64,000 nucleotides of DNA. It comes from a virus. Lineage: Duplodnaviria; Caudoviricetes. Numbering within the stretch: the first letter of the stretch is position 1; each line of letters starts with the position of its first letter. Of the stretch, positions 9,966 through 57,289 are shown one piece after another. The stretch lies in the IMG/VR virus record IMGVR_UViG_3300020037_004820. One strand, written 5' to 3'. Position numbers and translations under genes: made by a program. The notes below the pieces were generated by a model, which did no database searches, had not been told where the DNA came from, and was given only the letters and a program-made list of their open reading frames with translations.

Positions 9966-10799
9966 ATGGACAATTCAGAGCTTAATGCATTTGTTGTTGA
10001 GATTCAATCTGAATTTCAAGAGACGAAAATCTTCAATAAACAGAAGATGGAAACTCTTTGGAAGGAATTCAAGCCGCTCATCGATAAGCTTTCGTACCAT
10101 AAGTCTGTTAAGACTGGTGGGCAGCATAAGAATGATCTTGTGCAGGTTTGTTATTTGGGTCTTTGTGATGCGGTACGAAAGTATCAAATTGCCAAGATTG
10201 ATTTTAAGAAGTATGCAGTGATTTGGTTCATGGCATATATTCGTCTGGAAAACATTCGAAATGTTTCTATTTTTCGATATTCATCGAGAATGGATCGTAA
10301 ACTCTTTGGAAAGGTATCTCAGGTATCAAACCTTCCTTTGGATGAGCAAGCTGTTATTCTCGGAGTTTCCACAGAAGATTTGGCGGCTTTCCTGCTGTCA
10401 ACTAAGGTAACGAAATCTATTCTTAAGAAGCGATCTGAAGATTCCGATCTGGAAGAAGAAGAATTCATTACGTCGGATTATCCTCAACCAGATTTTCTCT
10501 TTGATGTCAAGGTTATTTATGAGGCTTCGAAAGAAGTATTTGATGATTTTGCAGAATCGTTGGAGACTGATAGAGAGAAAGCAGTTTTGGAACTTCTTCG
10601 TCGTGTTGGTCCTCCTTCGAAGGGAAATTTCAAGGAAGATCCGACTGATACTCTTCCTCAAACCTATCAAGATTTGGCGGATATTTACGGGGTTTCTCGT
10701 GAACGTATTCGTCAGATATCCAAGATGTTGACGGATAAACTTCGTTATCGCTTGGAAAAGAATGGTGTTAGTGCGAGTGCTTATCATGCCTTTATCTAA
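9966..10799 (+). CDS. Sigma70-family RNA polymerase sigma factor (RpoH/RpoD-like)
   Basis: Region 2-like DLVQVCYLGLCDAVRKY..FKKYAVIW; region 4.2 HTH TYQDLADIYGVSRERIRQI. Confidence 0.9.
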   Translation: MDNSELNAFVVEIQSEFQETKIFNKQKMETLWKEFKPLIDKLSYHKSVKTGGQHKNDLVQVCYLGLCDAVRKYQIAKIDFKKYAVIWFMAYIRLENIRNVSIFRYSSRMDRKLFGKVSQVSNLPLDEQAVILGVSTEDLAAFLLSTKVTKSILKKRSEDSDLEEEEFITSDYPQPDFLFDVKVIYEASKEVFDDFAESLETDREKAVLELLRRVGPPSKGNFKEDPTDTLPQTYQDLADIYGVSRERIRQISKMLTDKLRYRLEKNGVSASAYHAFI

Positions 10800-13895: not shown

Positions 13896-13952
13896 TGCAA
13901 GCAGCGTGCCAAAGAAAACGGCCCTTGTCTAGTCGTCCACCGTCGTTATGGT
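13896..13952 (+). promoter_or_regulatory. Promoter island: inverted sigma54-type site plus TTGTCT-N16-TATGGT
   Basis: 13896-13911 reads TGGCACGCTGCTTGCA on the - strand; TTGTCT 13925; TATGGT 13947. Confidence 0.6.
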
Positions 13953-14889: not shown

Positions 14890-15673
14890 TTTCTAATCTG
14901 GTCTTAAAAAGCCACTACTCCGAGCACAGTACAATCACCGCTCAGATCAGATTAGAAAGGGCACGTTTAGTGCCCAATTACATGACTAGTGACAAGTCTC
15001 ATTTTGGAGACGGGTAATCAGTCCTCCTTGTCATTAGTCATCTTGATTAAAGAGCATACCAGTTGCACAATTCGGTGCGATCGGTGGAGTCAAAATGCTC
15101 AAAAAGGTGATCTCCTACTCCTAATGAGTTAATCATCATAGATAAAGATAGCTCATCCATCCTGATAAGATGAAGATGGGACTACTCAAGAGAGAGAATG
15201 CCTGGTATCTCCTGAGTATAGTGGAAGGCAAAATAGAATGATACCAACTTAAAATTACATGGATTTGACAGCGAAAGCTGTCTCTAGCTAAGTTTTGGCA
15301 AGAGAAGTAAGCTAGAGTACACAAAAATTGCAAAGGAAACACTCCTCTGCTGGGAATGTCGCCGGTTGTTGTAGTGAGAAGTCGGTGCCGTAAAACTCTA
15401 CATAAGAGGACGAGTATCTCGCAAGGAGAGAAAGGACTTGAGATAGTAGTAATCCGGTGTGTACGTCGATACCTACCAACTCGGGAAAAACGAAGCACAG
15501 TGAATGCGGTTCTGCTGAAGAGATTATGTTGTCAGAGCTATTCAAACTAGTTCGGATGATGTAGTTGAACAGTTTCCGAGCGGGTTCCCTGCCCGCTCAA
15601 TTCAAACACAACAAGGCAACTTAACACAGTCCTTCTGTGAAAACAGTGAGTTGATAGTGTTTCTTTGCCAAAA
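14890..15673 (+). ncRNA. Large (~780 nt) highly structured ncRNA, GOLLD/ROOL-class candidate
   Basis: Long helices (14891-14904/14944-14957; 14982-14996/15027-15041; 15330-15343/15656-15668); GNRA-capped hairpins; no credible ORF; lies between tRNAs. Confidence 0.65.
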
Positions 15674-15676
15674 CAT

Positions 15677-15768
15677 GGAAGTATGGCCGAGTCTGGCTTA
15701 TGGCTACAGTCTAGAAAACTGTCGCGGTCTAACAACCGCCGTAGGTTCAAATCCTACTGCTTCCTCCA
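15677..15768 (+). tRNA. tRNA-Ser(AGA), A34 anticodon
   Basis: ACAGT-CT-AGA-AA-ACTGT; long variable arm; CCA. Confidence 0.9.
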
Positions 15769-19082: not shown

Positions 19083-19159
19083 AATTGGTCATAGCATTAC
19101 TGGATAATGCGTTCCGCTAGTACCGGAAAGATTGGGTTCGAATCCCGAGCCAATTACTA
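19083..19159 (+). tRNA. Atypical tRNA-Thr(AGU), A34; 4-nt connector; 3' end ACTA
   Basis: AATTGGT/GCCAATT; GCAT/ATGC; TTCCG-CT-AGT-AC-CGGAA; TTGGG-TTCGAAT-CCCGA. Confidence 0.7.
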
Positions 19160-32970: not shown

Positions 32971-33331
32971 TTTAATAGAAGAGTTAAACCTAAAACCAAT
33001 TATATCTTTAAAAGATAAATTCGAACAAGATATTCATGCATTTAAAGTTTTAGATTATCCACAATGGAGCACTTTACTTCAATATATATTAAACAAGGGA
33101 AAAGCTATTTATGGGGATAATTTGTTTGATATGCAAATATCTGAATTAGTTGTTTCTCATATAAATGAAAATCATGAGATGATTAGGAAACTAAACCTGA
33201 TAACTAATCAGTTAGAAGTTAAACAGTTAATCAACGAAAATTATCTCTTAATTGATTACGTGGCTGTCGCAGTCTGCAACGCTCCAAACCCCGAGCAAGC
33301 GCTCGGTCGCTATGCAAGCTCTGTGCCATAA
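32963..33331 (+). CDS. Hypothetical protein
   Basis: GGAG SD. Confidence 0.55.
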   Translation: MNDLIEELNLKPIISLKDKFEQDIHAFKVLDYPQWSTLLQYILNKGKAIYGDNLFDMQISELVVSHINENHEMIRKLNLITNQLEVKQLINENYLLIDYVAVAVCNAPNPEQALGRYASSVP

Positions 33332-33474: not shown

Positions 33475-33927
33475 ATGACCGCTACCATTACTGCCAATAC
33501 CAATACCAAGAAGCTCGCGTCGCGTACTCTCGAAAACATGTGCCTCAAGGCGAGCCATGTTCTCTTGCAGAAGTCGCCGAAGGATCTCGCCGAGTTTTCG
33601 AAGATTCTCGACCGTAGCAAGCGTGAGATTGCGCTCGCTCGCGGTGAAAACTCGGCGTTGAAGCGAGTTTATGCCGTCGAAACCGAGGCTCGATACAACT
33701 TGCTCGTCAAGGTTCTCGGAACTTCGGGTGAAGCTCTCACGACCGAGCGTTTGAACAATGATACCTCGTTGACGCCGGAAGATATTCGCATCTTCATGCT
33801 TTTCCGCGGTGTCAATCTCGACAATGTTTTCTCGTCGGAGGAGCAGGAGATCTTCGCGGATCTCAATGAATCCGATATGAAGCAGAACATCTACCTCGGG
33901 GTGGACTGCACGAAGACCGACAAGTAA
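33475..33927 (+). CDS. Stand-alone hypothetical protein with GC-richer codon usage
   Basis: TAAGGA SD; own promoter island and terminator. Confidence 0.8.
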   Translation: MTATITANTNTKKLASRTLENMCLKASHVLLQKSPKDLAEFSKILDRSKREIALARGENSALKRVYAVETEARYNLLVKVLGTSGEALTTERLNNDTSLTPEDIRIFMLFRGVNLDNVFSSEEQEIFADLNESDMKQNIYLGVDCTKTDK

Positions 33928-33947: not shown

Positions 33948-33984
33948 AAAGGGTCACACTCGAAAGGGTGTGACCCTTTCTCAG
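33948..33984 (+). terminator. Intrinsic terminator
   Basis: AAAGGGTCACACTC-GAAA-GGGTGTGACCCTTT. Confidence 0.8.
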
Positions 33985-34024
33985 TTTAAGTTGCGTTCAA
34001 AACGTATAGAAACGGAGAACTCTA

Positions 34025-40228: not shown

Positions 40229-40567
40229 ATGTTAGAAGCATTTTCCTGTTTAAACTCTATGAAACATTCTATTGGACAACACTTATACATCCTTCAAAAC
40301 TCTTTAACTAAAGATATTAAAATAGGTAGATCTAATGATCCTTATATTAGATTAGATCAATTACAAACTGCTAATTCTAATAAATTAAGAATGTTAATCA
40401 TTTTAACTAATCAAGGATTAAGAGAAAAAACATTACATAAACTATTAAGGAAATATAATAAGAATGGAGAATGGTTCTCCGAAGCAGCTTTACCAGAATT
40501 ACCAATTGATATTTATGAGCAATTTGATCTTGATCAACTCTTAGGAGTTAAGATTAGTTTGAACTAA
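40229..40567 (+). CDS. T5orf172/MUG113 (GIY-YIG-like) domain protein
   Basis: LYILQ..IKIGRSNDP..RL..LQTAN..EKTLH..GEWF. Confidence 0.85.
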   Translation: MLEAFSCLNSMKHSIGQHLYILQNSLTKDIKIGRSNDPYIRLDQLQTANSNKLRMLIILTNQGLREKTLHKLLRKYNKNGEWFSEAALPELPIDIYEQFDLDQLLGVKISLN

Positions 40568-40655
40568 ACAGACTCTCCTCTTCTGTGTCTATACAGTTTA
40601 GTATCTGTATATCTATGTCTCACACAGAACAGTCTGTTTAGGGACTGTTCTGATT

Positions 40656-40690
40656 AAAAAGAGATTGACCAGCCTTGCGGCTGGTCAATC
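40656..40690 (-). terminator. Strong terminator ending the minus-strand cassette module
   Basis: GATTGACCAGCC-GCAA-GGCTGGTCAATC-TCTTTTT on - strand. Confidence 0.85.
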
Positions 40691-40693
40691 ATA

Positions 40694-40858
40694 TTACTTC
40701 TTCTCCTTATTCAAATAACCGTTCAAAGTTTTCTCTTTGATCGATTTGTACATACTATCAGGCACTTTCATCGTCAGTTCCCCATCGAAACCAAAGATGT
40801 ATGCTTTATCATTAACAGTATCGATCACGAGCAGATCAACAAACTTGTTCTCAGCCAT
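40694..40858 (-). CDS. Cassette gene 15, 54-aa hypothetical protein (not in ORF track)
   Basis: AAGGAG SD; MAENKFVDLLVIDTVNDKAYIFGFDG... Confidence 0.7.
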   Translation of the reverse strand: MAENKFVDLLVIDTVNDKAYIFGFDGELTMKVPDSMYKSIKEKTLNGYLNKEKK

Positions 40859-40923
40859 GATAACTCCTTGTGGGCAGGATTGCCTTAAAAAGAAAGCGAG
40901 CCCACCTTTCGGTGGGCGTTTGC

Positions 40924-41235
40924 TTAGCTCTTATCTTTACGATTGTCTTTGGTCCCAGAAGGACCGTTCGTATAGACCAGCATATTCTTGAAGACAGTGG
41001 ATCGATATGCAGAGAACTTCTCTGTATGCAACCATGCGCCTCCAGTTGAATCGATCCTCATCATCGGTCGTTCGAAATGAACCAGATCAGGAAAGCGATC
41101 CCCACGAGTGAGATCCTCTATCTTGACGATGATTGCAGATTCGAATGCACCAGTAAAGGTTTTCACAACGTCACCGACGCTGATTTCATCCATACTGATG
41201 TAATTACGATAGATCGAGGGAATGTTGTCGTCCAC
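40924..41235 (-). CDS. Cassette gene 14, hypothetical protein
   Basis: GGAGG SD, GTG start. Confidence 0.75.
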   Translation of the reverse strand: MDDNIPSIYRNYISMDEISVGDVVKTFTGAFESAIIVKIEDLTRGDRFPDLVHFERPMMRIDSTGGAWLHTEKFSAYRSTVFKNMLVYTNGPSGTKDNRKDKS

Positions 41236-41308
41236 GATAAACCTCCATAGGGATTGAATATCCCTTAAAAAAAAGAAACAGCCCCAGCTTTCGCTGGGGC
41301 AATCTCCA

Positions 41309-41560
41309 TTATGCTAAACGGCGTCTCATGTGCATATTTCTCAGCTCTCTGAGATCCAAAGCGATACGAGCAGAAGCGAGAACTTCGATAGGCTTGCGAC
41401 CTTGCTTCACAAGATCATAACAAGCCTTGACATGCCAATGGTCCATGATAGGGATATAAACCCCTTGATCCGGCTCAGGACAGTCTTTTGACTGAGATTT
41501 CTCCCAATCAATTACCATGAACTCGCCGTTGACCACTGCTAAAAAGTCACAGGTGAACAT
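41309..41560 (-). CDS. Cassette gene 13, hypothetical protein
   Basis: GGAGG SD before MFTCDF. Confidence 0.7.
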   Translation of the reverse strand: MFTCDFLAVVNGEFMVIDWEKSQSKDCPEPDQGVYIPIMDHWHVKACYDLVKQGRKPIEVLASARIALDLRELRNMHMRRRLA

Positions 41561-41831
41561 TGTTCCTCCGGTCGAGAATATCTTGAATAACCTGAAGACG
41601 CTCATGATCGTCGAGGTCAATTCCTTTGCGATCCATTTCATGACAGAGTTCTTCGAGAAGTTCTTCTGCATCATATGGATAATCTGTTGTAAGCAGCTTA
41701 CTTTTCTCTATAAGCTGCTCGATGTCCCAAGCCTTTTGTAGATAGCTTTCACCATCTGCATCTGCTTTGGCATCGTTGAACTCTTCGTCGCAGGAACTGC
41801 CATCTTCGTAAGCGCCATAATCAGTGCGCAT
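41547..41831 (-). CDS. Cassette gene 12, highly acidic small protein
   Basis: GGAGG SD; D/E-rich. Confidence 0.75.
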   Translation of the reverse strand: MRTDYGAYEDGSSCDEEFNDAKADADGESYLQKAWDIEQLIEKSKLLTTDYPYDAEELLEELCHEMDRKGIDLDDHERLQVIQDILDRRNNVHL

Positions 41832-41884
41832 AATGCACCTCCATTAAACAACAAAGCGAGCCCACCTTTCGGTGGGCGTTTGCT

Positions 41885-42151
41885 TTACAGTTGCTTATGT
41901 GACGCCGAAGCCATCGAAGTCTGCTCCATCACATAAGCTATTATCAGGTTCTTGACTGCTTCTCGTTGTGTTCTACCGGAAACAGAACGCCCCCTCCAGT
42001 TATCCCCACCCGGAGAAGGAGGAGGAATATGGAAGGATGCACGCCATTCGATCAGCGGATTGGATTCGCTGCGAAAGTTGTGCTTCTCCACAACTGCCTG
42101 ATACTTGATGTTGCAGATGTGAAAAGTAACAAGCTGCTCGAACTTGAACAT
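41885..42151 (-). CDS. Cassette gene 11, hypothetical protein
   Basis: GGAGG SD before MFKFEQ. Confidence 0.7.
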   Translation of the reverse strand: MFKFEQLVTFHICNIKYQAVVEKHNFRSESNPLIEWRASFHIPPPSPGGDNWRGRSVSGRTQREAVKNLIIAYVMEQTSMASASHKQL

Positions 42152-42227
42152 AATAACCTCCAGTTGGGATGAGATATCCCTTAAAAAGAAAACCCTCCCG
42201 TCTTTCGACGGGAGGATTCTCAATTGA

Positions 42228-43460
42228 TTAGGCTACCAAGCTGAGAACCTTCTGGAAGGCGTCTTGCTTGCCCTTGATGTTGGTATCGAGGAGCAGCCCG
42301 TTCATGTAACGCTTCTCTTCTTCGAGACGCGGGTTCTTGTCCAATCCGTTCACCTGAGCGAAGTGATCGGTCTGAGCCGTCCATCCGCACCAGAGATCGA
42401 ACAAGGTTTCGCAGTTCTTGCCACCACCAAGATCGTCGTTGTAGACGGCCTTGGTCAGAACTGCATCCAGCATGTTCGTCGCTCGGGTAAGACCAGTTTT
42501 GGTCTTGCCGCTCATGTCCAGATCCATCTGGTCGATGACGAACTGCTTGATAATCGCATCACGCTTGTTCTGCGTTTCTGCGATCTTGGTCGATGCCATC
42601 TTCTTGAACACCTCCAGAATCTCCAAAGATCCCACGAGAACATTCGAGAAGCCAGCATGCCATTCTGCCAGGCGAGTAGTGAACATTGCAGTCCGGCGAG
42701 GACCACGCTGACGCATTTTCTCCAATCCCGTGAGCTTACCCCATCCTTCATGGTGAGCATGCGCCATCGTGTTTTCACACACGATGCGAATGATGGTGAG
42801 ATAGAAACTTCCCACCTTGCTACCATCCAACGGGCTGATCACGGTCAGATAAACGCGATGCTTATCCCCACCACGCGGCTCGAACTCACCAAGCAGATAT
42901 TGCACGGAAACAACTCGACCGTCGGACCAGCAATTGCAGCCAGCCGGGGTAACGAGATTGTTCACGGCAATTTCTACTTCATTGATCTCAACATTGGGAT
43001 GCTGACTCTGGAGGAAGTCCAAGACTGCTTTCTGTTCCGCGAAATCGCTGGCCTTGATCGTCACCTCATCGGGGATGATCACGACCTCACGATGCGGATT
43101 GGTTGCATAACTTGCACCCACACCGACCTGAAGCGTAACATCCGGTCGATCCGCTCGAAGCAGATTGTACTGCTTCGGATTGGACTCGATGAAGGTGTTA
43201 TCAGGGAGTTTCGTTCCGGTCAAGCCTTTGATCACATCGAAGTCAGCGCCTGCGCCTCGAACGATGGGAAGCATGGTCGGTGAGAACTCCTTGAGTGAGG
43301 CGCAATTGCTTGCATCCCACCAGCTCGGTTCACTACCCTTGTTGAAACAATGCGAGTTGCCAGCCGGGTCATACGCAAGACGACCGTTATCGGGACCAAC
43401 GCCCTTATCCGAATCCATCTTGGGAGCATTCGCCTGAGCAATCTTCGCGAGAATCGACAT
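42228..43460 (-). CDS. Cassette gene 10, DUF932-family protein
   Basis: SPLDGS..IRIVCENT signature; C-terminal TLFDLWCGWT..DH; AGGAGG SD. Confidence 0.75.
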   Translation of the reverse strand: MSILAKIAQANAPKMDSDKGVGPDNGRLAYDPAGNSHCFNKGSEPSWWDASNCASLKEFSPTMLPIVRGAGADFDVIKGLTGTKLPDNTFIESNPKQYNLLRADRPDVTLQVGVGASYATNPHREVVIIPDEVTIKASDFAEQKAVLDFLQSQHPNVEINEVEIAVNNLVTPAGCNCWSDGRVVSVQYLLGEFEPRGGDKHRVYLTVISPLDGSKVGSFYLTIIRIVCENTMAHAHHEGWGKLTGLEKMRQRGPRRTAMFTTRLAEWHAGFSNVLVGSLEILEVFKKMASTKIAETQNKRDAIIKQFVIDQMDLDMSGKTKTGLTRATNMLDAVLTKAVYNDDLGGGKNCETLFDLWCGWTAQTDHFAQVNGLDKNPRLEEEKRYMNGLLLDTNIKGKQDAFQKVLSLVA

Positions 43461-43560
43461 AGAAACCTCCTATAAAGACACCATGGAATAGTATCCTACT
43501 CACCCTGAGCGGGATATCAAGACACAAAAAAGTGTGCCCCTCCGAAGAGGGGCAGAGACT

Positions 43561-43713
43561 TTAGAACTTACTGCTTATGCGATTCGTCACGTTTTTGGCG
43601 TAACGATCAGACTGAGCAGGTTGTTCCATCTTTTTGGCAGGAGGAGCAGGTTGCGGAGGAACATACCTATCGTAATAGTTCTGCCTCCAATATCTTTCTG
43701 AATAATAATCCAT
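43561..43713 (-). CDS. Cassette gene 9, 50-aa protein (not in ORF track)
   Basis: GGAG SD; MDYYSERYWRQNYYDRYVPPQPAPP... Confidence 0.55.
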   Translation of the reverse strand: MDYYSERYWRQNYYDRYVPPQPAPPAKKMEQPAQSDRYAKNVTNRISSKF

Positions 43714-43715
43714 GA

Positions 43716-44051
43716 TCACAACTCCAACAAGCGAACATTGCCGACCGATCCATCATCCTGCTTAGACCAGCGTTCGGCACGTTTCTTGCCTGAACTGATC
43801 TGAACAACATTATCTGGAACGGTGTACATTCCTTCATCGCCGATTGACGCGCGCTTCGGAGCATTACGGTTCAGAAGATCTGAGAGCTTCAAACCGTAGA
43901 ACTTGAGCACGCGCAACGGTGGAAGGAACGACTGTTGCATTTCCGCGTTGGCGTTGCTGATCTGACCAAGTAGCTCAGAGGACTTCACGATATACTGTTC
44001 AGTGATATCGCTCCATTCTTTGAGAACTTTGAGATCCTTATCTGTTGACAT
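43716..44051 (-). CDS. Cassette gene 8, hypothetical protein
   Basis: AGGAG SD. Confidence 0.75.
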   Translation of the reverse strand: MSTDKDLKVLKEWSDITEQYIVKSSELLGQISNANAEMQQSFLPPLRVLKFYGLKLSDLLNRNAPKRASIGDEGMYTVPDNVVQISSGKKRAERWSKQDDGSVGNVRLLEL

Positions 44052-44128
44052 GAGAACTCCTATATAGGCAGGATTGCCTTAAAAAAGAAACTGCTCCTGC
44101 TTTCGCAGGAGCAATCTCGGTCAGTTGG

Positions 44129-44389
44129 TTAGGCGATACGCTTGATCACAGCCGTATGTCGCACACCTTCTTTGATGATGAAGAAGGGCTTGGTCGCTTT
44201 GTACAGCGTCACAGTTGCGAACAGTTTGAATTCGGGAGCGAACTCCACGAATCGGTCATGGTCGAGCAGAAGTGGAGGAAGTTCCTCACCTTTACGGGTG
44301 TGCGGTCCTTTCTCACCGCTGGCGGTAACCATCGGCCAGAGACGGACCTGGAACATCTTGCCAGCATTCGGATTCGATTCGATCTCCAT
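44129..44389 (-). CDS. Cassette gene 7, hypothetical protein
   Basis: GAGG SD before MEIESN. Confidence 0.75.
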   Translation of the reverse strand: MEIESNPNAGKMFQVRLWPMVTASGEKGPHTRKGEELPPLLLDHDRFVEFAPEFKLFATVTLYKATKPFFIIKEGVRHTAVIKRIA

Positions 44390-44468
44390 GATAAACCTCA
44401 CATAAGGACGGGATTGTCCCTTAAAAAGAAAACCCTCCCGTCCGAAGACGGGAGGATTCCCAGGTTAT

Positions 44469-44804
44469 TTATCCAGCAAACTCTTCGACAGGAGCGACCT
44501 TGACCCAGAGAATCTGAGCAAAGTCTCTCTCTTCGCGGCACACCTCGGCAGCCTGCTTTGCAGAGAAGTAAACCAGCTTGGTCAGCGTGTCACGTCCTTT
44601 CTGCACAGGAACTTCCTCGAAGCAGCGATCCAAGCTCTCGATGCTCGGCTTGTTGACGTGATTGGGAAATTCACGCTCACCTCGCGTCGGAACACGCTTG
44701 TTCGTCCTGAGCTGATTGTGCACATACTCCAGATCATGGTTATCCAGGGCAGTGGCTTCGGCTTCCGAACGAACGAGAGTGATCGCGTAATCGACATTCG
44801 ACAT
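44469..44804 (-). CDS. Cassette gene 6, hypothetical protein
   Basis: AGGAG SD. Confidence 0.75.
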   Translation of the reverse strand: MSNVDYAITLVRSEAEATALDNHDLEYVHNQLRTNKRVPTRGEREFPNHVNKPSIESLDRCFEEVPVQKGRDTLTKLVYFSAKQAAEVCREERDFAQILWVKVAPVEEFAG

Positions 44805-44891
44805 GATAGACTCCTAACTCAGTTTGGGGACGAAATTATCCCTTAAAAAAGAAACAGCCCCAGCCGAAGCTGGGGTGTTCCATTCACTTAC

Positions 44892-45233
44892 TTAGCTCTT
44901 CTTGGCACGGGCCAATGCCTGCGAAGAACGAACCACCGCGTTGTGGAACGATTCTGTACAGGTTCCGTAGAAGAATCGTTCCCAATTCCTCAACGTCGCC
45001 TCTGAATAACCCGTATCTTTTGCAGCAGCTTGCGACGAGAAACCATTCGCCTTATTCAAGCGAAAGAGCTCGACGTTGACACGACGTTGAAGATTGCACA
45101 CATCGTTCGAATAGTCGTTGTCAGCTCGACCACGACCGATGCGCTTAAATCCCGTAACGTCATGCGTCTCGAACGGCGCATCTTCATTCTGGAGGATGGC
45201 GCGAAGGTTCGAACGATTGCTGGGCTTGGACAT
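44892..45233 (-). CDS. Cassette gene 5, putative HTH DNA-binding protein
   Basis: SQAAAKDTGYSEATLRNWE HTH-like; GGAG SD. Confidence 0.65.
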   Translation of the reverse strand: MSKPSNRSNLRAILQNEDAPFETHDVTGFKRIGRGRADNDYSNDVCNLQRRVNVELFRLNKANGFSSQAAAKDTGYSEATLRNWERFFYGTCTESFHNAVVRSSQALARAKKS

Positions 45234-45311
45234 GAAAAACTCCATTGCATAAGATGAGCGACATGCTCACAAAAAAGCAACCCCAGCCGAAGCTGGGGCG
45301 CTTATTGAGGA

Positions 45312-45776
45312 TTAGGCGAGACACTTCACATAAAGTGTCGTCCTCCAAACTACTCTCTCACTGTTCTGAATGTCTCTTTCGAAGTGTTGAATATCGCCGA
45401 AGCGCATCAACTTGCAGACTTCCAAGAGAGACGGCCACCGCTGGCTGATCCACTTTTCGTCCACGTTCTCTTCACAGAGAAGCGGTGCAGTATCAATGTA
45501 CTGCACCACCTTATCCCGACTAACCTGTTCGGGTTTGGCAGCGTAGAAGGCCCATCGCCGACTGTACAAGCCACCATTGGCGGGAAACATTTCACTGACC
45601 GTTTCCAGACTCGCTTCGGGTCGGATATACCGATCCTCCTTCGCGAGCGAGAAGCGAAGCTCCTTCTGAGTCTTGTTCTTGCCAGAACCGGCAGCTTTCG
45701 CAGCCTTCTTAGCACGACGGACTTCAGTTGCGGCAGCTTCACGAGTCGCGATGTCAACCGAACCACCCTTAGCCAT
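45312..45776 (-). CDS. Cassette gene 4, hypothetical protein with Ala/Lys-rich N-terminus
   Basis: AGGAG SD. Confidence 0.75.
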   Translation of the reverse strand: MAKGGSVDIATREAAATEVRRAKKAAKAAGSGKNKTQKELRFSLAKEDRYIRPEASLETVSEMFPANGGLYSRRWAFYAAKPEQVSRDKVVQYIDTAPLLCEENVDEKWISQRWPSLLEVCKLMRFGDIQHFERDIQNSERVVWRTTLYVKCLA

Positions 45777-45848
45777 ATTCATTCTCCTAGCAGATTGGGG
45801 CTTGATTGCCCACAAAAAAGCGTGCCCCTCCGAAGAGGGGCGATTGCT

Positions 45849-46094
45849 TTATACTTTCACGATGCCGAGCGGAGTTGCTGCCATCGTCAGAGCCATTTGT
45901 GCAGCGCTCTGATAACCGCGAACGATTTGAGCACGAACCTGCACGCCCATGCCGAGTTGCATCCCATCGATATCATCCATCGCGATGTCAATGAGTTCAT
46001 CGGCCTGCGCTTTGTTCTGAGTCGAGAACTGATAGATATAGTTCCCGAGGTTGAACGCGAGGTCAGCGATCACCTTGTCTTTCGGATCACCCAT
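45849..46094 (-). CDS. Cassette gene 3, hypothetical protein
   Basis: AGGAG SD before MGDPKD. Confidence 0.7.
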   Translation of the reverse strand: MGDPKDKVIADLAFNLGNYIYQFSTQNKAQADELIDIAMDDIDGMQLGMGVQVRAQIVRGYQSAAQMALTMAATPLGIVKV

Positions 46095-46168
46095 GAGAAT
46101 TCTCCTGTTGTGTGCATGATTGCACAAAAAAGTTGCCCACTCCGAAGAGTGGGCAGAGACTTTAGTTG

Positions 46169-46402
46169 TTAGGCTTCGATCACATCCCAACCCTTCGGAG
46201 CACGAAGGTCAGTGATATCGCTCATGCTCGCAGGAACATCCTGAATTCCCAACGAAACCTTTCCCGACGGGAAGTGAGCCAGCGCCTTGCTGATCGCGAT
46301 GTCATCCTTTTGCTCGGAAAAGTAGAATTCCTGATCGCCACAGGTCGCGACGAAACGGGTGAATTCAGCGCCGAGGACAGTGACCTTGCTATTGTTCGAC
46401 AT
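46169..46402 (-). CDS. Cassette gene 2, hypothetical protein
   Basis: AAGGA SD. Confidence 0.7.
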   Translation of the reverse strand: MSNNSKVTVLGAEFTRFVATCGDQEFYFSEQKDDIAISKALAHFPSGKVSLGIQDVPASMSDITDLRAPKGWDVIEA

Positions 46403-46479
46403 GATAGATTCCTTACTGATAGAGGAACGAAATTGTTCCTTAAAAAAGAAAGCTGCCCCGCTTTCGCGGGGCGCTTCTC

Positions 46480-46881
46480 TCAGGCAGACTGACGTTGATC
46501 GAACGTATCCAATTCAATCTCACGTTGCATGCCCGCTTCGTAAAGCTCATCGTGCATCGCATTCAGCTCATCGTCCAACTCGTCCCGCTTACGCTGGAGA
46601 GTACGGATATGGCTATAGATATCTGCACGAAGCTGTTCATAGCGACGCTCGATATCATCCCGTGCCTTACCCACGGTGAACGCATTGTACAACTCACGCT
46701 CAGTAACATTCATATCACTGAGCTGTTCCTTCACCACGTTCGAGAGATCCTTTCGATGGGACCGCCAAAACTGGCGACGGATGAAGCGCATGATGCCAGG
46801 TTTGCAATCCCGCGAATGCGGGCGCATATACTTGACCTCACTTGCCCACTTGCTCACCTTGATCAAGGTGACCTTATGCAT
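46480..46881 (-). CDS. Cassette gene 1, basic N-terminus plus coiled coil
   Basis: AGGAAGGGAG upstream of MHKVTL. Confidence 0.7.
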   Translation of the reverse strand: MHKVTLIKVSKWASEVKYMRPHSRDCKPGIMRFIRRQFWRSHRKDLSNVVKEQLSDMNVTERELYNAFTVGKARDDIERRYEQLRADIYSHIRTLQRKRDELDDELNAMHDELYEAGMQREIELDTFDQRQSA

Positions 46882-46883
46882 CG

Positions 46884-47120
46884 CTCCCTTCCTATTGATA
46901 GTGGTATGCCACGCAATCAACAACCGACCAGGATAGACAATGGCATGATTAGTGCTTATGTCCTTATCCTATTGACGATCACTAACGCCGTGAATACCTC
47001 TATCAGTCTAAGGTAGTTAGAGCATGGACACTGCGTCCTTACTCTCTCTCCCTTCCTATTGATAGTGGTATGCTACCCAAACATGACGCGCCCACTATCC
47101 ACAATGGCATGAAAGGTGCA
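46884..47120 (-). promoter_or_regulatory. Tandemly duplicated promoter-like unit heading the cassette module
   Basis: 26-bp identical repeat at 46884-46909 and 47048-47073; sigma54-like TGGCATGA..GTGC at 46941 and 47105; both offsets 164 bp. Confidence 0.65.
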
Positions 47121-47226
47121 TAGCGGAAACTAGATGAGAGGTAACACAGAAAGCCCCGGGACCCCCAATTGACCCTTTCTTTAAACGCAGCTCATTTTAA
47201 CAGAATTATAAAAGTTTTGTAAAAAA

Positions 47227-47994
47227 TCATCCGTATTTTGATGATTTTTGTAAATTTTCTTTAGCACTAATAAGACGTAAATTACTTAGTGACCAACATT
47301 CTAAAAATTCTTTAGATAATGGATTCGTTAATTGTTCTTTATCAAAAGCTGACAAAGGTTTTATATGATCAATATGGCAATCAATTAGTTTTAAATTTAG
47401 AGGTTTAGTATTTAATAAATATTTAACAAATTCTTCTTTTGTATAGGGAAGATATCTTAGTTTACCTATTGTTTGTTTAGTTAAACATCTTCTAAGAGCT
47501 TTTCTCATTCTATTAATAATAATTCTATGAGGCTGTTTATTATATTCTTTACGCTTTTCTGTTATTAATGCTTTATTCTTTTGATAATAAGCATATTTCC
47601 ACTTTTGAAGTCGATCAACATTTTTAATTTGATAATCCTTTTGATATTTACTCCAAAGTTCAGGATTTTTCTCACGTTGTTTTTTATTTCGTTTACGTTC
47701 ACTTTCTTTATTTTTTGGAAGTTGTTGTTTATATAAATTTTTACATTTTTTACATTCTCTTCCTTGAGAGACTTCTGATTTATGTTTTATTTCTTTGCAA
47801 CTACTGCAAGTAAATACTTCTAACTCTTGTTTTATAAGAGGTTTTGGTTCTTTTATATCTGCCCAAGTTGTTCCATTTATAGCAGCATATAAAGCAGATT
47901 GTTTGCAATTTAACAATAATGCTATATCTGATATTTTTTTGCCTTCCCAAGCTAAAGTCCGAGCTTGGATTACTATATTTTTCGTAAGTTTCAT
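47227..47994 (-). CDS. HNH homing-endonuclease-like protein
   Basis: CSSC..CKKC; HIDHIKPLSAF..WSLSNLRLISAKENLQKS. Confidence 0.8.
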   Translation of the reverse strand: MKLTKNIVIQARTLAWEGKKISDIALLLNCKQSALYAAINGTTWADIKEPKPLIKQELEVFTCSSCKEIKHKSEVSQGRECKKCKNLYKQQLPKNKESERKRNKKQREKNPELWSKYQKDYQIKNVDRLQKWKYAYYQKNKALITEKRKEYNKQPHRIIINRMRKALRRCLTKQTIGKLRYLPYTKEEFVKYLLNTKPLNLKLIDCHIDHIKPLSAFDKEQLTNPLSKEFLECWSLSNLRLISAKENLQKSSKYG

Positions 47995-56271: not shown

Positions 56272-56652
56272 ATGTACAGTCCGTTAAACATAGTTAACAG
56301 TGCTGATCAACTGATCAAATCTGATCAGAAGTATATAAGCTATCAAAAGCTATTTAAAGAGAAATATAATATAACATCTGAGATCGTTAATCTGATCGAT
56401 ATGATAGCATTGGAAGATTTAATAGCTTTTAAAATAGAAAAAAGTTTAAATATTTTTAATGGAAGGAATTTATTTCCTTTAAAATCGATTTATATGACTT
56501 TGTTAGAACTTGCTTATGCTCAAGTAATAAACTCGTATGAGGATACTAAAATACGTAAAAATATTCGATCTACATTTAATGGAATTAAACATAGTCTTTA
56601 CTATAAAGTAAAAAAAGAAGAAGAAAGACTTGAGAAATTAAAAAATGCATAA
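56272..56652 (+). CDS. Hypothetical protein
   Basis: ORF; start uncertain. Confidence 0.6.
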   Translation: MYSPLNIVNSADQLIKSDQKYISYQKLFKEKYNITSEIVNLIDMIALEDLIAFKIEKSLNIFNGRNLFPLKSIYMTLLELAYAQVINSYEDTKIRKNIRSTFNGIKHSLYYKVKKEEERLEKLKNA

Positions 56653-57289
56653 TACAAAAATATTTAATGTGTATAATGTAACATTTTTTATATCTAATTT
56701 ACAATTAAACATAGAAGATGTTAAGAAAGATATAATACGTTTACCCAAATTTTGCTTCTTAGAAGTCAATAAAGTTTACATATATAATGCAGAAGATTTG
56801 GATAACTATGATTTAGATAGTTCATATGGTCACAGAATTGTAAAAATAGACTCATCTAAGATAGCTTCTAGAAAAGATTTAGTTAAAACATTGATTCATG
56901 AATTATATCATTCTATTCAAGATCAAATTAAAGAAAAATTCAATGAACAATTTGAGAAAGTTTGTTTTGAGTATCTCGTAAAAAAGAAAAAAATTCTTGA
57001 TATATTTAAATCAGATAGTCGATTCACTCCTCCTGAACCTTCCTTCTACACGGCGTTATTTTATAATGAAAAGTTTGATGATTATCTATATAATATCATT
57101 GGATATAATGTTATTAATAATCGTTTGAAGGATTATTTTCCATCATCCTATTCTATGACATCAATCGATGAATATATCGCCACATGTTTTGAAATTTTCT
57201 ACTTTGAAAATCAGAAGTGGTTGTCTATATATTGTCCAGAGGTTTTTGATTTAATCAAAACAATAGGAAGTTATGAAAAAGAAAATTAA
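56645..57289 (+). CDS. Putative zinc metallopeptidase (HExxH)
   Basis: TLIHELYHS..YSMTSIDEYIATCFE. Confidence 0.65.
   Translation: MHNTKIFNVYNVTFFISNLQLNIEDVKKDIIRLPKFCFLEVNKVYIYNAEDLDNYDLDSSYGHRIVKIDSSKIASRKDLVKTLIHELYHSIQDQIKEKFNEQFEKVCFEYLVKKKKILDIFKSDSRFTPPEPSFYTALFYNEKFDDYLYNIIGYNVINNRLKDYFPSSYSMTSIDEYIATCFEIFYFENQKWLSIYCPEVFDLIKTIGSYEKEN

Follow-up and report, generated by a model that had tools for sequence, protein, structure and literature searches.

A conserved two-hairpin cassette array in the GC-rich island of a large low-GC phage: a possible translation-gated read-through operon

The minus strand of a 64,000-nucleotide (nt) stretch of DNA from a tailed phage (IMG/VR record IMGVR_UViG_3300020037_004820; hereafter the window) carries an array of 15 genes in which 12 junctions share one layout: behind the stop codon stands a GC-rich stem-loop (hairpin 1), then a U-tract, usually a second and smaller stem-loop (hairpin 2), and finally the Shine-Dalgarno (SD) sequence of the next gene. 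This two-hairpin cassette array is real and is conserved across at least nine genomes; no earlier description of the junction was found in the literature searched. Composition and layout support the view that the array would act early, as a module adapted to the host and headed by a single promoter block. Our preferred reading, to which we give somewhat less than an even chance, is that the island carrying the array is one read-through operon gated by translation.

Homologues of the DUF932 protein encoded in the array (61–74% identity), drawn from a protein collection, revealed eight independent loci where the array recurs (L023, L024, L026–L030 and L033). Together with the window they supply 92 elements; L037, a further locus with 99.8% identity to the window, was excluded from all counts. 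Scans of viral, metagenome and genome sequences with DUF932, gene 1, gene 7, MnmA and the sigma factor gave no close loci. Rfam matched only tRNAs, and pattern scans for the element and for the non-coding tail of the array gave single or chance matches only.

The original prediction had described 12 minus-strand elements, each with a U-tract, and hairpin 1 loops of GAAA in six copies and UUCG in the other six: all of this holds, and a 13th element, a terminal terminator with a 12-bp stem and a GNRA loop (GCAA), lies 3' of the last gene (40690–40656). The GC-rich hairpin leads directly into the U-tract, as in an intrinsic (Rho-independent) terminator. The terminator score is above zero in 88 of 89 scored elements (median 34.7), the last 9 nt hold six to eight T residues in all 92, and contiguous stems measure 7–17 bp; final terminators have stems of 10–13 bp where measurable (three were not measurable by script), compared with an internal mean of 8.8. 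Terminator-like sites number 31 versus 8.7 ± 2.9 in shuffles. Only one more hairpin with a stable tetraloop was found outside the array in 64 kb (at 15272), and all window matches to a covariance model fall inside the island; the model covers hairpin 1 alone, because the register of hairpin 2 varies. The extra-stable tetraloops emphasized in the original prediction, although present in all 12 copies, are dispensable: loops are GAAA or UUCG in 62 of the 92 elements, 19 loop sequences occur in total, and the relative L023 has many others.

Two distances characterise the junction. The stop codon precedes the stem by a median of 8 nt (at most 12 nt in 70 of 84 cases, at most 22 nt in 82 of 84, and 3–16 nt in the window), a feature that the original prediction missed. 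The U-tract ends at a pyrimidine/purine boundary of one of two types, AAG, which lies 20 nt from the loop in 44 of 68 cases, or GTG, which lies 17 nt from it in 20 of 22. Where the SD follows the U-tract directly, the tract is interrupted by purines in seven of nine junctions, versus three of 52 with hairpin 2 (these copies are not independent). The 30 nt upstream of hairpin 1 hold no sequence information (about 0.2 bit or less per position); a hidden -10 motif near the stop codons was considered and dropped. An integron attC cassette array was likewise rejected: the position profile has no conserved RYYYAAC ... GTTRRRY cores on either side of the hairpin.

Hairpin 2, counted by a strict loop-centred rule that 9.6% of shuffles also pass, is present in 66 of the 92 elements; the remainder are the expanded leader of the DUF932 gene, terminal elements, SD-only junctions and three short stems. 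The window copies are as originally listed, with hairpin 2 absent at 41845 and expanded at 43525. In 63 of the 66 it begins 0–2 nt past the U-tract. Of 54 distinct copies, 50 have A as the first loop residue (compared with 32% of shuffled matches) and 51 a pyrimidine as the last; C-G is the usual closing pair, and inner pairs alternate between G-C and A-U; pairing reaches 92% versus 30–44% when the definition is slid, a difference that the loop-centred definition itself favors. Loops are 5–6 nt long and variable (33 sequences), and that pairing and loop ends persist through all of them points to selection on the RNA. The expectation that hairpin 2 would prove conserved and covarying in homologues, with its A-first loop, is thereby borne out. 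Similarity among copies follows the downstream gene (0.55–0.60 versus 0.43), and hairpin 2 is therefore best regarded as the leader of that gene. Since it lies downstream of its own terminator it cannot act there in cis; as a loading site it could serve only the next one. Nine junctions have no hairpin 2, each still succeeded by strong terminators, and the terminator that follows the one at 41845 has the top score in the window. The position of hairpin 2 at an invariant boundary, together with similar hairpins at two predicted starts elsewhere, suggests that a 5' end may form there.

Ahead of the array lies a candidate promoter block composed of two 78-nt repeats, 164 nt apart, each with a sigma54 box on the opposite strand, 29–30 nt, a TAnnnT-like motif and a purine-rich run. 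Repeat 1 (47045–47136, minus strand) comprises a conserved 13-mer (47136–47124), a reversed sigma54 (-24/-12) consensus box (47105–47120, plus strand, oriented away from the array), 29 nt, a -10-like motif (47075–47070) and a purine-rich start, and is followed by a small leader hairpin (47026–47038, minus strand), of which A-loop versions occur in L030, in L033 and after repeat 2 in L023. Repeat 2 (46881–46958, minus strand) has its reversed box at 46941–46956 (plus strand), 29 nt, a -10-like motif at 46911–46906 and the SD of gene 1. This layout is kept in all four genomes that extend to the head, with GG-N10-GC in nine of nine head sigma54 copies. No conserved promoter was found inside the junctions. 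The proposal of one head promoter block for the array thus stands, as a candidate. The companion claim that units contain no -35/-10 boxes applies to 11 of 12 junctions: the exception is a sigma70-like box (43520–43493, 16-nt spacer) ahead of the DUF932 gene, kept in four of nine genomes. A doubtful open reading frame (ORF) of 50 amino acids precedes this element; its terminator may therefore lack gating, and the box may truly promote transcription from within the array.

The reversed sigma54 boxes also escaped the original prediction. Six consensus boxes occur in the window versus 0.09 expected. The four outside the head (6890 and 9874 on the plus strand; 13911 and 33328 on the minus strand) each precede, at short distance, a TTG-N16-TAnnnT promoter and a gene whose GC content at third codon positions (GC3) is raised, so that the window holds four single-gene early-type units with clear boxes of this kind; the unit at 33328 is conserved in L023. 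Two of these boxes are forward (one ahead of the sigma factor gene) and two reversed. The direction expected of sigma54 promoters for the adjacent early genes is thus not what is found: the head boxes and those at 13911 and 33328 face away from them. Five unrelated viral contigs (L055, L067, L094, L124 and L143) have three to seven sigma54 boxes, several facing away from adjacent sigma70-like promoters, and a sigma54-like promoter is known from phage YuA (PMC10914365). Two candidates, a leader word resembling boxA and a sequence that looks like a T7 promoter, were dropped, since the relatives do not retain them.

The island (40562–47190, minus strand, with the same layout in all eight relatives) has a GC content of 0.45–0.55 (about 50%) compared with about 0.31 in the remaining phage DNA, and its genes a GC3 of 0.58 compared with 0.17 elsewhere, in agreement with the original estimate by eye. 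Its edges, near 47190 and 40570, are sharp; a genome end at 47190 was considered and dropped, as L023 and L037 continue across this position (a terminal repeat is still compatible). Island genes avoid the codons AAA, CAA, TTA, ATA, ACA and AGA, which dominate the rest of the window, and several of these A-ending codons are served by phage tRNAs or tRNA enzymes. We infer that island genes would be expressed before phage tRNAs build up, in a host GC-richer than the phage.

Cassettes have been gained, lost and reordered at the elements. Gene 7 precedes gene 8 in the window and in L028 and follows gene 10 in the six others, gene 5 shifts position, and genes 11 and 14 exchange order among relatives. 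A cassette gene of 450 amino acids is found in seven relatives (L023:11669–13030; a weak MPN635_N match in L024) and is missing from the window. In a distant relative, L163 (42% identity), six junctions (L163:1412–6910) have a repeated hairpin and U-tract of another kind, with stems of 16–26 bp unrelated in sequence to the window elements: the layout therefore outlives the sequence.

How might such an array be transcribed? Given that the junctions show no visible restart, a polymerase started at the head must pass 12 terminators. If translation gates the passage, host RNA polymerase would read the whole island as one early operon from the two head repeats, and the ribosome trailing it would cover the 5' arm of hairpin 1, just behind the stop codon, and so prevent the terminator from folding; each terminator would then be passed mainly while the upstream gene is under translation. 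In Escherichia coli terminator tR2 has an efficiency of about 90% when it stands 28 bp behind a stop codon and of less than 10% when the distance is 5 bp; recovery is full only past about 27 nt, and the effect is abolished by uncoupling translation (PMC4824070). With stop-to-stem distances as short as those observed here, these data imply that in a coupled host each terminator would be open during translation and closed otherwise. Leaky terminators would yield nested mRNAs with protected 3' ends and expression falling downstream. Hairpin 2 would be the standard 5' leader of the next cassette, separating U-tract from SD and protecting a 5' end formed at the U-tract; a protein may recognise its A...pyrimidine loop. 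Cassettes could also be exchanged through the repeated joints. Gating of this kind calls for no phage factor, which fits L033, where gene 1 is apparently truncated.

Several points weigh against ribosome gating. Short stop-to-stem distances are usual, and occur without silencing, in bacteria with uncoupled (runaway) transcription (PMC7858274), and the spacing seen here may reflect only an uncoupled host of that type or compact intergenic space. The control for spacing, two other clear phage terminators (9 and 29 nt), is too small, and the terminal element has equally short spacing. Twelve serial gates would demand high read-through at every one. Nor would gating account for hairpin 2's invariant loop, for the invariance of the boundary between U-tract and AAG, or for the constant distance (17 or 20 nt) that separates this boundary from the loop.

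A host with runaway transcription would need a processive antiterminator, and it is possible, if somewhat doubtful, that the array is read in this way: the gene 1 product and/or a structured leader RNA would modify the head-started polymerase, with hairpin 2 as a loading or reloading site, by a logic like that of conAn (PMC8191782) and phage p7 or gp39. Gene 1 is the sole gene ahead of the first terminator and its basic motif is kept in seven homologues; leaders fold into long structures, three of them with the A-loop hairpin that resembles hairpin 2; and the loops of hairpin 2, variable with fixed ends, are unlike the stable tetraloops of hairpin 1. Those leader structures nevertheless differ in sequence among relatives, and the stem of the last terminator, where measured, is not extraordinary (compare PMC10325885). 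L033, moreover, keeps the array even though its gene 1 homologue (870–1151) diverges past about 30 codons and reads through the first terminator, probably by partial deletion. The antitermination cascade of the original prediction accordingly survives in part: terminator-grade hairpins, a head block and a conserved hairpin 2 are all present, but L033 and the nine junctions devoid of hairpin 2, that at 41845 among them, weaken a strict relay through hairpin 2. The invariant boundary would find a use if transcription stopped in the U-tract and restarted at the next purine, by means of a phage-made or phage-modified polymerase acting on an N4-like hairpin promoter or a T-rich -10, with hairpin 2 as the 5'-terminal stem-loop of a primary mRNA. 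The fixed spacing from loop to boundary and the start of hairpin 2 immediately past it accord with this idea, as do the predicted starts of two other early units, which open with similar GT-purine hairpins, and the U-tract/GTG boundary found before the same two genes in the distant L163. We nonetheless consider such hidden starts decidedly unlikely. N4 promoters require a conserved template-strand loop centred at -11 (PMC4496689), whereas the loop here, RNA-stable on the coding strand and free to vary in L023, stands at about -20; neither its position nor its 19 sequences fit a promoter of the N4 type. Among the window ORFs scanned there is no polymerase gene, and the sigma factor of the phage itself sits behind a host-type promoter.

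The close adjoining of hairpin 2 and boundary could also be the mark of a nuclease. A cut in the U-rich linker would give single-gene mRNAs, their 3' ends guarded by hairpin 1 and their 5' ends by hairpin 2 or by a bare SD; intact U-tracts accompany hairpin 2, and L163 has its long stems at the same kind of site. This processing would still require read-through, and could be combined with ribosome gating or with antitermination. As the main account of the junction we regard it as very unlikely: no known nuclease motif was identified, geometry and U-content suit termination well, and the hairpins (7–15 bp with G-U pairs) are shorter than the classic RNase III stems of T7. A T7-type RNase III signal, with about two helical turns and an internal loop, was rejected on the contiguous stem lengths. 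Cassette movement raises the further question of whether the junctions resemble each other simply through copying at recombination joints, hairpin 2 having no function of its own. Genes 5, 7, 11 and 14 reorder and the 450-amino-acid gene comes and goes at the elements, and hairpin 1 shows homogenisation among the L023 copies (0.65 within, 0.55 between); against this, homogenisation is slight in the window, L026 and L030, and hairpin 2 tracks its downstream gene. Copying alone thus appears highly improbable. An unlikely composite would make of the junction a hand-over module in which hairpin 1 ends one RNA, the same site gives the next 5' end (by promoter-less restart or a dedicated cut), some phage or host protein reads the hairpin 2 loop, and reversed sigma54-docking promoters switch the module on.

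Along the minus strand, gene 1 (46480–46881; 133 amino acids, helical, with a conserved basic motif RxFWRxHRK) is a candidate, unproven antiterminator; it has no family or fold match in searches that held no direct comparison with ConAn1, an absence that we do not take as evidence. Element 1 (46423–46472, AAG type) separates it from gene 2 (46169–46402; 77 amino acids), followed by element 2 (46112–46155, GTG), gene 3 (45849–46094; 81 amino acids), element 3 (45798–45841, GTG) and gene 4 (45312–45776; 154 amino acids), which has a basic N-terminus and 63–92% identity in relatives. Beyond element 4 (45255–45299, GTG) lies gene 5 (44892–45233; 113 amino acids), with a weak XRE-like helix-turn-helix below the Pfam cut-off, then element 5 (44827–44875, AAG), gene 6 (44469–44804; 111 amino acids), element 6 (44404–44461, AAG) and gene 7 (44129–44389; 86 amino acids). 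The last is present in all eight relatives and has no clear fold match (best Z 4.3). Atlas matches in the fold searches stayed under 0.85; these absences, too, are not taken as evidence. Element 7 (44066–44118, AAG) precedes gene 8 (111 amino acids) and the coupled, doubtful 50-amino-acid ORF (together 43561–44051). Element 8 (43491–43554, GTG), with the expanded hairpin 2 and the candidate sigma70 box, leads into gene 10 (42228–43460; 410 amino acids), which matches DUF932 above the Pfam cut-off and is distantly TIGR03299-like; near-identical proteins are encoded on contigs of 115 kb and 221 kb. Next come element 9 (42166–42221, AAG), gene 11 (41885–42151; 88 amino acids) and element 10 (41846–41877), with a G-interrupted U-tract, no hairpin 2, the SD directly after and the sole negative terminator score. 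The overlapping genes 12 (94 amino acids) and 13 (83 amino acids; together 41309–41831), element 11 (41249–41300, AAG), gene 14 (40924–41235; 103 amino acids), element 12 (40873–40917, AAG) and gene 15 (40694–40858; 54 amino acids) complete the array. Most of these genes had been called orphans, and family matches are indeed confined to DUF932 and the weak helix-turn-helix; yet 13 of 15 have homologues in related phages, the exceptions being the 50-amino-acid ORF (43713–43561) and the 83-amino-acid ORF (41560–41309). Six of the 15 island proteins end in alanine, mostly following a hydrophobic residue, and several of these ends are kept in relatives: they are possible degradation tags on early proteins.

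Behind the terminal element lies a conserved non-coding tail (40562–40655, minus strand), a longer hairpin followed by a purine-rich motif (40587–40571) that recurs in all eight array ends. The tail, conserved at the array ends of L023, L024, L026, L028–L030 and L033, adjoins a convergent T5orf172 gene, has no Rfam match and is possibly a small RNA or a stop signal. At the other edge, an AT-rich HNH-like gene (47227–47994, minus strand) stands between the island head and the long gene upstream, and is not at that site in L023. In two relatives, L030 (20–40) and L033 (525–540), the AT-rich DNA immediately bordering the head block has a T4 late-promoter octamer, which is not so placed in the window. 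A lone GC-rich gene (33475–33927, plus strand) is followed, 19 nt after its stop, by a GAAA terminator (33949–33990) with a U-tract ending in AAG; L023 is alike. The window belongs to a large low-GC phage with 14 tRNA genes, TilS, MnmA, a CCA-adding enzyme, glycosyltransferases and a sigma70-family factor gene (9966–10799); a faint match to T4 gp15 occurs in one relative. Two of the tRNAs, tRNA-Ser(AGA) (15677–15768) and tRNA-Thr(AGT) (19083–19157), have A in the wobble position, which is rare among bacteria, and a 214-amino-acid protein (56645–57289, plus strand) has an ATLF domain above the Pfam cut-off (E 3.5e-7), probably a zinc peptidase-like domain.

In the phage early cassettes known so far, either each unit has its own promoter (PeSL) or there are processing stems. 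Here a strong terminator stands after nearly every gene with no visible restart, and the design recurs in at least nine genomes. Were ribosome gating true, the array would be a natural chain of translation checkpoints: a host defence that blocked translation would also bring the toxic early genes to a stop. Gating would further reveal a host in which transcription and translation are coupled; were a factor needed, gene 1 and hairpin 2 would name a new antitermination system. The array also marks out about a dozen conserved candidate takeover or anti-defence genes. An early gene train with an inter-gene signal, and small host-adapted genes, are likewise found in the T7 early region and in the SPO1 host-takeover module. 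The T7 early RNase III sites, however, are long irregular stems without U-tracts, and the SPO1 module has many strong promoters.

The N4 virion-polymerase hairpin promoters (PMC4496689) share with the junction an inverted repeat, a T-run and a purine on the coding strand, and differ in loop position, in the freedom of the loop and in the RNA-type tetraloops found here; no virion polymerase was seen among the window ORFs scanned. Xp10 p7, P23-45 gp39 and lambda N/boxB (PMC6624301, PMC3351154, PMC4499122) are the precedent for a small early protein, such as the basic product of the first gene, that could pass host polymerase through; gene 1, however, has no match in sequence or fold, and hairpin 2 stands after each terminator and has no GNRA-like boxB loop. 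With ribosome masking, as in the tR2 experiments (PMC4824070) and attenuation, the junctions share stems 1–22 nt behind the stop, within the range of ribosome-suppressed termination. Masking has been demonstrated in E. coli, with engineered terminators taken singly and with the attenuators of leaders; no report was found of a natural chain of 12 ribosome-masked terminators in a phage operon.

The systems of the conAn type (conAn of pLS20, PMC8191782 and PMC10325885; put, EAR and LoaP) have a layout that the array appears to resemble: numerous intrinsic terminators inside an operon read from a single promoter at its head (here a candidate block), a small first gene and a structured leader. The array differs in placing a terminator behind nearly every gene, each paired with a conserved downstream hairpin, and apparently in the final stem, which is not extra-long where measured (10–13 bp); no homology was seen in family, fold or Rfam searches. 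In the PeSL (promoter-early stem-loop) cassettes of the T4-type phages RB49 and phi1 (PMC2839356), as here, a repeated intergenic terminator hairpin with an SD stands between small genes whose function is unknown; the repeats are sites of gene gain, loss and reshuffling, and a large tailed phage makes early use of host polymerase. Every PeSL, however, contains a consensus sigma70 promoter, compared with one candidate in 12 junctions here, and PeSLs have no counterpart of the conserved second hairpin. Since the per-unit promoter is missing, the array is not a PeSL, though similar in its shuffling. It would appear instead to be a new form of early-cassette array: one that shuffles as PeSLs do and is built like a processive-antitermination operon.

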